Source: a virus
Taxonomy: Duplodnaviria > Heunggongvirae > Uroviricota > Caudoviricetes
DNA: 64,000 bases
Strand: one strand, 5' to 3'
IMG/VR virus record: IMGVR_UViG_3300046522_000748
The notes under the pieces: model-generated
Databases searched by the model: none
Told to the model about the DNA's origin: nothing
The model's input: only the letters and a program-made list of their open reading frames with translations
Shown: positions 52,270-55,999 of the stretch, piece after piece
How positions within the stretch are numbered: the first letter of the stretch is position 1
How the letters are laid out: each line of letters opens with the position of its first letter
Position numbers and translations under genes: made by a program

Positions 52270-52884
52270 TTATTTTTCCAATTGAGCCAGTGCGGCGACT
52301 GCGGCCCGCAGAGTGGTTTGGTACTTCTTCCCTTCTCGAATGGACTCCATGATGTCGCCCATTGCCCGGTGGCTGGTGCCTTTTTCGGTCGCGAACTGTG
52401 GCGAAACTGTCAGCAAAAACTCGTTGACCGATGACATGTCCATGTTGCGGTAGTGAATGAAGTCACTCAGCGCTGGCATCTTGATTTCGATGAAAACCCG
52501 ATCCAGGTACACCGAGTTTCCGCACAGGCGCGCTTCCCAACCATTCACGCCATTTTCTTTGAAGAATGCCAGTATCTGAGCTTCGGCCTCCTTCACGGAA
52601 AGACTGGATTTTTCGCATTCTGCAAACAAGCCGTTGTCGGTGTGCATCTTGATTACTACATCATCCGAAACAGGTAGGTAGTCTTCGGGCTTGTAGTGAA
52701 TCACGACGTTCAGGCTGGCGAAGGGATTGAGATCACTGTCCGTCAGCACAATCGCCATTTCCAGCAGGCAATGCTTGTAGGCCATTTGTTCGGAAAGCTT
52801 CGTAAACCCGGTTGTCTCTACGTCGATCCAGGCATACTTTCGGCTTTCAAGGCTGCTGTCCCACTGTTGTTTTCCACCGGTCAC
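52270..52884 (-). CDS. orn: Oligoribonuclease (DEDDh)
   Basis: WIDVETTG, LEMAIVLTDSDLN, MHTDNGL, LCGNSV.LDR.F, HYRNMDMSSV, HRAMGDIMES. Confidence 0.93.
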   Translation of the reverse strand: MTGGKQQWDSSLESRKYAWIDVETTGFTKLSEQMAYKHCLLEMAIVLTDSDLNPFASLNVVIHYKPEDYLPVSDDVVIKMHTDNGLFAECEKSSLSVKEAEAQILAFFKENGVNGWEARLCGNSVYLDRVFIEIKMPALSDFIHYRNMDMSSVNEFLLTVSPQFATEKGTSHRAMGDIMESIREGKKYQTTLRAAVAALAQLEK

Positions 52885-52917: not shown

Positions 52918-52956
52918 ATTATAGGTATCAGCCTTACAAGTGTCAACCATAATGAC
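52918..52956 (-). promoter_or_regulatory. sigma70 promoter + operator (orn)
   Basis: TTGACA-N17-TATAAT; gtcaaccataatgac. Confidence 0.85.
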
Positions 52957-52969
52957 ATATATAATGGGA

Positions 52970-52998
52970 TTGACAGGCGAGCATTTCATCGTTAATAT
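52970..52998 (+). promoter_or_regulatory. sigma70 promoter for ncRNA copy 1
   Basis: TTGACA-N17-TAATAT. Confidence 0.7.
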
Positions 52999-53004
52999 TC
53001 ACTC

Positions 53005-53225
53005 AACGGCGCCGCTCCAACGGCTAGTGCTTCAGGGCATGACATCAAGCAGAGTGGAATCTGCACCTGGGGGTTCTAACATTCCCCTCAATGTTGGCGT
53101 GTGGCAAACGTTAGATCAGGCATGAGGAGCTGGCGAGCCCGGAAATGGGCGCTTGAGCCAATAGCAATTGCTTGCACTTGATGTATATGTATCAGCTACA
53201 GATTAACCGCTTCGGCGGTTTTTTT
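53005..53225 (+). ncRNA. Unclassified structured RNA, copy 1
   Basis: Own promoter and UUCG terminator (53205-53225); no credible ORF; helices homologous to 53858-54069. Confidence 0.75.
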
Positions 53226-53231
53226 GTTTTC

Positions 53232-53270
53232 GCCAACAGCGTTGACAACTTTAAAAAGCGTCATTAGAAT
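53232..53270 (+). promoter_or_regulatory. sigma70 promoter + operator (1 mismatch)
   Basis: gccaacagcgttgac; TTGACA-N17-TAGAAT. Confidence 0.8.
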
Positions 53271-53276
53271 TCGCGA

Positions 53277-53460
53277 AGTTGAGAGTGGGGCACAATTAGC
53301 GATGCCGTCCGTTATTGGAGGACGTTAAAGGCCATGTCTTCGGACTTACACCACCACCAGCCGACTTGCGACCGGCCCTCTCAAACGATATTAAAAGTGA
53401 TTGCGGCATCCCTGGCGGGCTCCACCAACTGAAACGTTACGGGAAAAGGACGGGATGCGA
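53277..53460 (+). ncRNA. Structured leader / ncRNA
   Basis: ttgagag/ctctcaa closing stem at predicted TSS, cgtcc/ggacg and gtc-ttcg-gac hairpins, gcatccc/gggatgc helix over next ATG. Confidence 0.55.
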
Positions 53461-53787
53461 ATGAGGAGTAAGTTTTTGAGGGGCTCGGCCCTGCTTCTGG
53501 TCACATGCTGCATTCAGGCATCTTATGCTGAAGAAAGCACATGGAATCAGAACGGGGAAATCCTACCTTTGGGTGTGGTGAGAAGATGTATAGGTGATCA
53601 GTTTTACTTGGTGGTAGTTGATGGCGGGATTCCCGGTGGTGGCTGGGCGAAATCAATTACTCTAGCACTGGAAAACGGTCAGCCAGAACGATGCAAACAA
53701 CCTTCGGTTTCATCCGACCCTAGCGCGTATGGGGATCGTCTCCGTGAGTTGGAAGCGGATAGACTGCGAAGGAATGCGTCGAGCTAG
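53455..53787 (+). CDS. Secreted small protein
   Basis: Signal peptide ending ASYA; Cys pair. Confidence 0.6.
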   Translation: MRMRSKFLRGSALLLVTCCIQASYAEESTWNQNGEILPLGVVRRCIGDQFYLVVVDGGIPGGGWAKSITLALENGQPERCKQPSVSSDPSAYGDRLRELEADRLRRNASS

Positions 53788-53857
53788 GTAGGAAATGTCT
53801 GCCCCCGAATTCGTTGTGCAACTGTTCGAACAGATCGCAGGCGGTCATTCTTTTTTA

Positions 53858-54069
53858 AACGTGCCGACTCTCATCGGCTAGTGCCTCCGTGCATGACGAG
53901 AAACAGGAGAGAGACCTGTAGCGGAACGGCCAACGCGGACCAGTTGGCGGGTGGCAACGTCAGTCCCAGCTATGCGAGCTTTAAATGGCGTCTGAGCATA
54001 GTAACAAGGACAGCTCGATTGGTTACCGCAAGTAACTAAAAGGCCGCATATTCGTATGCGGCCTTTTTT
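53858..54069 (+). ncRNA. Unclassified structured RNA, copy 2
   Basis: Homologous to copy 1; ends in ggccgcata-ttcg-tatgcggcc-T6 terminator. Confidence 0.75.
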
Positions 54070-54090
54070 ATTGCGTAAAATTTATCAGAC

Positions 54091-55126: not shown

Positions 55127-55999
55127 TTAAGCGACTTCGATTTCCCCAAACACTTCATCAGGCTTGAATCCATCGGCATCTACCAGCGATACATCTTTTT
55201 TCAACACAGGTTTGGCTGCGTTGAAGATGACTTCCACCGGGTTGGCCACAGAGCTGAACTTCGGCATTTCGATCACATCGATCTTCGAGCGAATGATCGC
55301 CAATTCAGGGTTGCTGCGTGCCAAGTGCTTCTCAGGCAGCTTCTCCAGTTCCTCGACCGTGAATGGCTTGGAGAAGAATTTGCGTTGCACATAGGTGCCT
55401 CGTTTGAAACTCACTGGATAATCGTTCCAGTTGATGCCGTTCTGGAACAGCAGCTCTTGTTTCTCAGCCCCATTCTTGCCTTTCAGCTGACTCACGGAAT
55501 AAAACTCTGAAGCGGCCATGGTGATACTGTTTTTGGTAGCATCCCACTCGCGCCACAATACCGAGTTCGCTGCTTCTATGGCGGTCGGAACCTGCCAGAC
55601 ACGAGCGTCGAAGGTTGGCAGACGCCGGGCATACTTTGGCATGGTGCGCAGGATTTCGTTGTAAAAACCAATGGTGGCTTGAGCAGCCAGCTGCGAAATC
55701 ATTTTGGTGATTCGGGCGTTAAACCACACAGCCCGTTTTTTGGCGTGCGGGTTGAACACCAGGGTGATTTCATCACTCTGCGTATAACCGATACAGGCGT
55801 TGGTTTCCTTGACCAGAAACTTGGTGGTTTCGATCATCGCATTTGTCATCAACTGATCAAATGGTCGGCCCATGCCTTTGGTGAATTTGCTGAAACCACG
55901 ACCGTCTACACGGGCAATGATTGGAATGCCTGGCATAAATTTACGAGCGGCTTCAAGCCCTTCGTATTCCTTCATCCGGTCGCCAAGTGCGTCGTTCAT
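55127..55999 (-). CDS. tRNA(His) guanylyltransferase Thg1-like protein (3'-5' polymerase family)
   Basis: RMK.YE, RVDGRGFSKFT, YTQSDEITL, FDAR, WRE.DATKNSI, INWNDYP..FKRG. Confidence 0.93.
   Translation of the reverse strand: MNDALGDRMKEYEGLEAARKFMPGIPIIARVDGRGFSKFTKGMGRPFDQLMTNAMIETTKFLVKETNACIGYTQSDEITLVFNPHAKKRAVWFNARITKMISQLAAQATIGFYNEILRTMPKYARRLPTFDARVWQVPTAIEAANSVLWREWDATKNSITMAASEFYSVSQLKGKNGAEKQELLFQNGINWNDYPVSFKRGTYVQRKFFSKPFTVEELEKLPEKHLARSNPELAIIRSKIDVIEMPKFSSVANPVEVIFNAAKPVLKKDVSLVDADGFKPDEVFGEIEVA

Follow-up and report, generated by a model that had tools for sequence, protein, structure and literature searches.

The window analysed here, a stretch of viral DNA of 64,000 nucleotides, carries on its plus strand two homologous RNA genes, c1 (53005..53227) and c2 (53857..54070), with a third, unrelated RNA between them. 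A preliminary description of this region had reported two related structured RNAs of ~210 nt, and both copies do lie where it placed them. The window contains exactly two instances of their shared 23-nt core, CGGCTAGTGC-N6-GCATGAC, where 0.07 would be expected, none of 100 shuffles gave two core matches, and a covariance model built on c1 plus its near-identical orthologue alone recovers c2 at 37.2 bits (E=4.7e-9). The same model, with all filters off, finds no third copy in the 64-kb window. A model-guided alignment gives c1 and c2 an identity of 66% over 154 aligned columns, besides 34 columns with gaps, and MAFFT places long identical blocks between them. c1 and c2 are paralogues in a family of free-standing structured small RNAs, ~210-220 nt each, that has not been described before and is restricted to one lineage.

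A promoter scan places a sigma70 promoter, TTGACA-17-TAATAT, directly ahead of c1 (52970..52998, plus strand), as had been claimed. The start predicted from it, A53005, is the exact point where the homology with c2 begins, and in the related loci L028 and L095 the promoter hexamers are conserved while the spacer varies. Both copies also end, again as described earlier, in intrinsic terminators with a UUCG loop: that of c1 at 53205-53220 is followed by seven U, and that of c2, a 12-bp stem at 54039-54066, by six U. For copy 1 it had also been stated that no credible ORF is present, and the family has no conserved one. Small ORFs of 19 codons in c1 and 7 codons in c2 were considered and rejected: neither has a conserved counterpart in the other copy, c1 and c2 differ by indels whose lengths are not multiples of three, and where variants change the only small ORF the substitutions are non-synonymous.

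The RNA between the two copies has a near-consensus promoter of its own, TTGACA-17-TAGAAT (53242..53270, plus strand, promoter scan), and its body, together with the 5' arm of its long terminator hairpin, was placed at 53278..53423 (plus strand) by alignment to L028 and by a consensus fold drawn from three relatives. On the related contigs the unit is 164 nt long (L028:301-464, minus strand of that contig) and ends right before c2. In the consensus fold a clamp of 7 bp (UUGAGAG/CUCUCAA) closes the body, three hairpins stand inside it, and the 3' arm of a 14-bp terminator leads into a T tract. This middle RNA is well conserved among the relatives; it matches no Rfam family and shows no sequence relationship to c1 or c2. 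In the window its terminator is interrupted: an insertion of 417 bp (53424..53840, plus strand) sits in the apical loop, and the 3' arm with its T run follows at 53841..53856, directly abutting c2. Seven of the eight related contigs lack this insertion, which carries an ORF (53461-53787) for a secreted protein of 108 aa with a signal peptide. At the DNA level the ORF shares 85% identity with a gene of the Pseudomonas siliginis plasmid NZ_CP099597, a plasmid that has none of c1, the middle RNA or c2. The 108-aa gene is therefore a small mobile cargo gene that landed in the terminator of an RNA gene. The scan found no sigma70-type promoter for c2, which begins directly behind the T run of the middle RNA terminator; because of this arrangement, c2 is probably made by read-through past the terminator of the middle RNA, by processing behind it, or by both.

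On the minus strand, divergent from c1, lies a gene for an RNase T/Orn-like exonuclease (52270-52884). On the other side, the gene after c2 is convergent, with its stop codon 21 nt from the end of the c2 U tract; the minus-strand genes there encode two 115-aa proteins, which are not clear paralogues of each other and belong to no Pfam family, and then a Thg1-like protein. Four related loci (L090 at 2743-2973, L091, L092 and L095) have ~600 nt of additional sequence, with a called ORF of 76-78 aa, between the c2 terminator and a 113-aa gene; this segment is absent from the window.

The shared fold of c1 and c2

Both copies can be drawn with one fold, in which two 5' hairpins (P1 and P2) are followed by a five-way junction where the long-range helix P3 closes P4, P5, P6 and P7/P8, and in which a pseudoknot, PK2, joins the P2 loop to the linker between P4 and P5. 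In c1 the helices are P1 (53011-14/53021-24), P2 (53027-30/53037-40), P3 (53043-48/53178-83), P4 (53049-53/53060-64), P5 (53076-83/53090-97), P6 (53099-105/53110-16), P7 (53131-34/53157-60) and P8 (53137-41/53146-50), with PK2 at 53032-36/53066-70. Their counterparts in c2 are P1 (53863-66/53875-78), P2 (53881-84/53891-94), P3 (53897-900/54014-17), P4 (53903-07/53915-19), P5 (53929-34/53943-48), P6 (53949-55/53959-65), P7 (53972-75/53996-99) and P8 (53978-80/53987-89), with PK2 at 53886-90/53921-25; c2 has in addition a hairpin at 54020-54038, ahead of its terminator.

The helices were drawn from both copies, a model (R1) was built on c1, and Infernal then aligned c2 and the relatives to it (alignments A7 and A9). 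A9 comprises 17 hits, or 12 distinct sequences. The drawn pairs form in 95.8% of its 497 cells, a share that drops to 30-41% if partners are shifted by 1-3 columns, and PK2 is paired in 100% of the sequences; since both copies were known when the structure was chosen, and since the alignment was made to fit that structure, these counts lean towards it. RNAalifold, given A9 without the drawn structure, nevertheless recovers P1-P8, and P6 was its own suggestion. The helices named in the preliminary description are among those that it finds unaided in the 17 sequences: GCAGA/UCUGC in c1 against ACAGG/CCUGU in c2 (P4), and CUAACAUU/AAUGUUGG against GCCAAC/GUUGGC (P5), are both present. The long-range pairing ACAUCAAG/CUUGAUGU against CGAG/CUCG (P3) is present too, but its outer pairs are lost in close variants of c1, and it is a core of 3-5 pairs that holds. 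A further adjustment concerns the linkers GUGGCAA..CGUYAG and CGAGC..UGAGC, which had been taken as conserved single strands: part of this sequence is better read as the small helices P6, P7 and P8.

Changes on both sides occur at 11 pairs in A9 (three in P3, two each in P4, P7 and PK2, and one each in P8 and P6). The compensatory changes reported earlier are present, but they amount essentially to one paralogue split, the strong covariation consisting of a single c1/c2 divergence plus a few changes among variants that are ~95-99% identical, and they are suggestive rather than statistically robust. In the c1 lineage, variation is seen in 6 of the 66 paired columns and in 29 of the 119 unpaired ones. 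At three of these six paired positions the pairing is kept (C-G to U-G); at the other three, which are pair 3 of P2 and the two outermost pairs of P3, it is broken. Sequence and length vary freely in the loops of P1, P4 and above all P5, and the strands conserved at the junction are UAG, UGA, GCG, GA/G-YY-UGA and AUAG. The fold needs seven G-U pairs in c1 and five in c2, which become A-C mismatches on the opposite strand, so that it is specific to the plus-strand RNA. Taken singly, the sequences do not fold exceptionally well (z-scores of -0.57 for c1 and -2.19 for c2), and minimum-free-energy structures differ among near-identical variants.

Several further contacts were considered and rejected. 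The conserved 5' end, (A)ACG, is complementary to the CGU, likewise conserved, in the GGCAA(A)CGU box, and all variants are compatible with a pairing of the two, but this pairing and P6 are mutually exclusive and indistinguishable here, and it is not significant against composition-preserving shuffles. The P1 and P4 loops are complementary in each copy (UCCA/UGGA in c1, CUCUC/GAGAG in c2); phi29-type pRNA, which oligomerises by loop-loop pairing, would be marked by two loops with a covarying complementarity of 4-5 nt. In composition-preserving shuffles this complementarity has p=0.08, uncorrected for 66 segment pairs, and a kissing interaction was set aside as not significant, with variants that weaken the pairing and do not compensate. 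A pairing of the P5 loop with J8-7 (the G-YY-UGA linker) is likewise not significant over the 66 segment pairs, and both loop pairings come down to just 3 bp in several variants. A kink-turn at GA / G-YY-UGA would have a loop of 4 nt, not 3.

Known RNA families and the distribution of c1 and c2

The family had been described as unclassified, and it remains so: the whole window has no match at gathering score to any of the 4227 models of Rfam 15, and ARAGORN finds no tRNA or tmRNA gene in the window. With E values up to 10, Rfam yields sub-threshold matches driven by the terminators, such as STnc320 (27.6 bits against 50). The rsmX model reaches 17.5 bits, against a gathering score of 56, over the 3' half of c1 including its terminator. 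An Rsm-type sponge (RsmX/Y/Z) was rejected on its GGA content, with three GGA in c1 and four in c2 per ~215 nt where ~3 are expected by chance. A tRNA-like body was rejected as well, as the linkers between P3, P4, P5 and P7 (11-33 nt) are far longer than in tRNA. From clamped tRNA-like cassettes c1 and c2 differ in having no cloverleaf and no ARAGORN match; the YTGYATTGGAA core of these cassettes has six matches with at most one mismatch in the window, which equals chance, and none of them is in c1 or c2. A riboswitch or cis-acting leader does not agree with the layout, in which c1 runs into a terminator followed by a separate promoter and c2 runs towards a convergent gene.

Tandem sibling small RNAs such as PrrF1/PrrF2 of Pseudomonas and OmrA/OmrB of E. 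coli are ~80-150 nt long and consist of simple hairpins with a conserved open seed. Like them, c1 and c2 are diverged, untranslated, side-by-side paralogues with intrinsic terminators, and c1 has its own sigma70 promoter. Unlike them, they reach ~215 nt, fold into a five-way junction plus a pseudoknot and have their conservation distributed along the junctions, an unrelated RNA lies between them, and they share no sequence or Rfam similarity with these pairs. Of the promoter and terminator that each sibling of such a pair should have, c1 has both and c2 the terminator only. With 6S RNA, bacterial Y RNAs and CsrB/RsmX-Z, c1 and c2 have in common that they are free-standing, apparently abundant and structured, and would act through their shape, yet they have neither the rod with central bubble of 6S RNA, nor the Ro-binding stem and tRNA-like module of Y RNA, nor the GGA enrichment of CsrB/RsmX-Z. 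Species 1 and 2 of phage T4 (RNA C and D) share a transcript with tRNAs, from which the enzymes of tRNA processing release them. They resemble c1 and c2 as small stable RNAs encoded in clusters by a mobile genome of large size in which tRNA-related genes are found too; the window, in contrast, has no tRNA, and c1 has its own promoter and terminator.

Relatives were reached through the RNase T-like protein, whose 90%-identity cluster contains nine variants, the contigs of which gave eight related loci from soil and rhizosphere assemblies. None of the eight has lost c1 or c2, as judged from every locus that extends over them, and in seven c1, the middle RNA and c2 stand head to tail with no ORF, the starts of c1 and c2 being ~419 nt apart. 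Genes for the neighbouring proteins are on JGI contigs of 1,136,521 and 442,984 bp. The replicon is a giant (~1.1 Mb) Pseudomonas-type extrachromosomal element with a three-gene RNA array of c1, middle RNA and c2, and the earlier assignment to a replicon-encoded class of non-coding RNA is borne out, in that an unclassified structured RNA with a promoter and terminator at c1 and no conserved ORF lies on a mobile replicon. The closest plasmid relative of the Orn-like protein is on a 1.17-Mb plasmid of P. silesiensis. The Thg1-like gene (a 3'-5' nucleotidyl transferase; 55127-55999, minus strand) has relatives in 52 IMG/VR contigs, eight of them >300 kb, and its product is ~50-53% identical to proteins of the Pseudomonas jumbo phages Viktualia and 201phi2-1. 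Several window proteins match PHROG families. As a side observation, the replicon combines PHROG-type phage proteins with a megaplasmid-like size, and the nearest plasmid relatives of two of its proteins, at 47-49% protein identity, are on Pseudomonas plasmids of ~0.9-1.2 Mb.

Outside this lineage the searches gave no members. The window has no nucleotide match in PLSDB or phage records beyond the inserted ORF (blastn, E up to 10). The core pattern has 24 exact matches in 185,579 species genomes and two in IMG/VR, all in unrelated or coding sequence, and a longer pattern meets only RecG-like coding sequence in JGI metagenome contigs. A second covariance model (R2) finds nothing at the 52 Thg1-bearing IMG/VR (jumbo-phage) loci, in the 0.9-Mb plasmid of Pseudomonas sp. 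FeN3W or in 154 Pseudomonadales genomes, sampled from the order to which a Moraxellaceae centre belongs, and in P. silesiensis pPL1 (1.17 Mb) gives only partial matches of 13-15 bits that miss most of the model. Since some c1 variants change the core itself (GCACGA, UGA), exact patterns could miss distant members, and the family is better called not found than absent in these collections. As the relatives found belong to one lineage only, the searches gave no larger, diverse alignment.

To our knowledge, the giant plasmid- and phage-like elements of soil pseudomonads are almost unstudied. With the promoter of c1, the terminators and a testable fold, the c1/c2 pair offers a concrete entry point into how such elements use RNA, and it would add a new family to RNA databases. 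The value of the family is limited by its confinement to one lineage, which also leaves the proof of the fold and the clues to function thin. It is a real and undescribed but narrow structured RNA family, of a kind, structured small RNAs encoded by mobile elements, that is already known.

Expression and mode of action

The stretch is present in several rhizosphere and soil metagenomes, four runs of which were examined. In each of two soil RNA libraries, which come from different studies, one contig falls completely within c1 and has no loose ends (182 nt at 53018-53199 in one, 175 nt at 53021-53195 in the other), and these contigs carry natural variant letters in the P5 and P6 loops. DNA contigs of other runs, in contrast, continue across the borders of c1. 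This gives a weak hint that c1 is a discrete, abundant transcript in soil, and it agrees with c1 as the most abundant RNA of the element in the two libraries sampled. Neither library has a contig over c2 or the middle RNA, a lack of cover that proves nothing.

The overall reading that we favour, at a probability of roughly 0.6, is that c1 and c2 are orphan structured small RNA genes in a three-gene array; in it, they would most likely act in trans, through their shape, by binding a protein. They would titrate or scaffold a host or element protein that recognises their three-dimensional shape, and pairing with mRNAs would be the less likely mode. Action in trans through shape is suggested by the conservation, which is spread over junction strands and stems, and by the layout, as no gene lies downstream in the same transcription unit; the retention of both paralogues further speaks for a shape-dependent RNA that binds protein. 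Taken by itself, as a share of the total, the proposition that c1 and c2 are shape-dependent, trans-acting scaffold or decoy RNAs is tentative and falls short of an even chance, the binding of a protein being judged from the pattern of conservation.

The best of the competing explanations, though still an unlikely one, is that c1 and c2 are sibling base-pairing small RNAs of the Hfq/ProQ type, like PrrF1/PrrF2 or OmrA/OmrB, in which an exposed segment pairs with host or element mRNAs and the fold serves as a stabiliser. The tandem arrangement of the paralogues fits such RNAs, as do the intrinsic terminator and U tail at the end of both copies and the AU-rich stretch UAUAUGUAU that precedes the terminator of c1. 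A single open seed is what one would look for, however, and the conserved blocks of at least 7 nt (CGGCUAGUGC, GCAUGAC, GUUGGCG and GUGGCAA) are instead in stems or at the borders between stems and junction, while a five-way junction with a pseudoknot is unusual for small RNAs of the seed type. Complements of the conserved boxes within the window are confined to the antisense strand of the copies themselves.

A trans-acting ribozyme, or an aptamer or sponge, whose active site or pocket would be made of the conserved junction nucleotides, is improbable. The compact, pseudoknotted fold and the conservation of junction strands next to covarying helices would suit such an RNA, but there is no Rfam ribozyme or riboswitch match with E up to 10, no hammerhead, twister or other core motif discernible by eye, and neither an expression platform nor a downstream gene, and in so narrow a family invariant catalytic positions cannot stand out. 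Of similarly low probability is the broader notion of a new compact, pseudoknotted RNA class of giant Pseudomonas elements with an activity that resides in the fold, be it as a ribozyme, as a self-assembling RNA or as a partner or substrate of RNA-end enzymes. Self-assembly is brought up by the complementary pair of loops that each paralogue has for itself. The role of partner or substrate would involve the adjoining Orn-like exonuclease and Thg1-like 3'-5' polymerase, and the possible pairing of the (A)ACG 5' end with the CGU box is cited with it. The Orn-like/Thg1-like neighbourhood of the RNAs is conserved inside this lineage only and is not seen at other Thg1 loci, and the link of the RNAs to these neighbours therefore weighs little.

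A cis-regulatory role, in which the ORF at 53461-53787 would have c1 and the middle RNA for leaders and c2 for its 3' UTR, is very improbable. In the window the promoter of the middle RNA would indeed drive the ORF, and c2 follows it, but in seven of the eight relatives the insertion is missing and the RNAs abut, the same ORF occurs on the P. siliginis plasmid with none of the RNAs, and c1 stops at its own terminator, with a separate promoter next. The relatives that have no ORF largely refute this explanation, and together with the plasmid homologue they largely exclude a leader or UTR role for the RNAs.

Just as improbable is an element that works as DNA (operators, an origin or a partition site) with inverted repeats that merely look like hairpins, for even though GCCG-N6-8-CGGC and TGC-N6-GCA are palindromic in DNA and the locus is a strand-switch region with several strong promoters, the P1 loop differs in length between the copies (6 against 8 nt), the 5-7 G-U pairs per copy would be mismatches in DNA or on the other strand, the long-range helices covary, the RNA-library contigs are confined to c1, and no GC-skew turn occurs at the locus.

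The promoters of the region differ in one respect. The RNase T/Orn-like gene has a perfect-consensus (12/12) sigma70 promoter (52918..52956, minus strand) with the palindrome GTCAACCATAATGAC over its -35 box, and a copy of this GTCA-N7-TGAC palindrome with one mismatch overlaps the -35 box of the middle RNA promoter. The promoter of c1, 14 nt from that of the Orn-like gene, is free of the palindrome. Judging from the palindromes at their promoters, the Orn-like gene, c1 and the middle RNA may be regulated differently.
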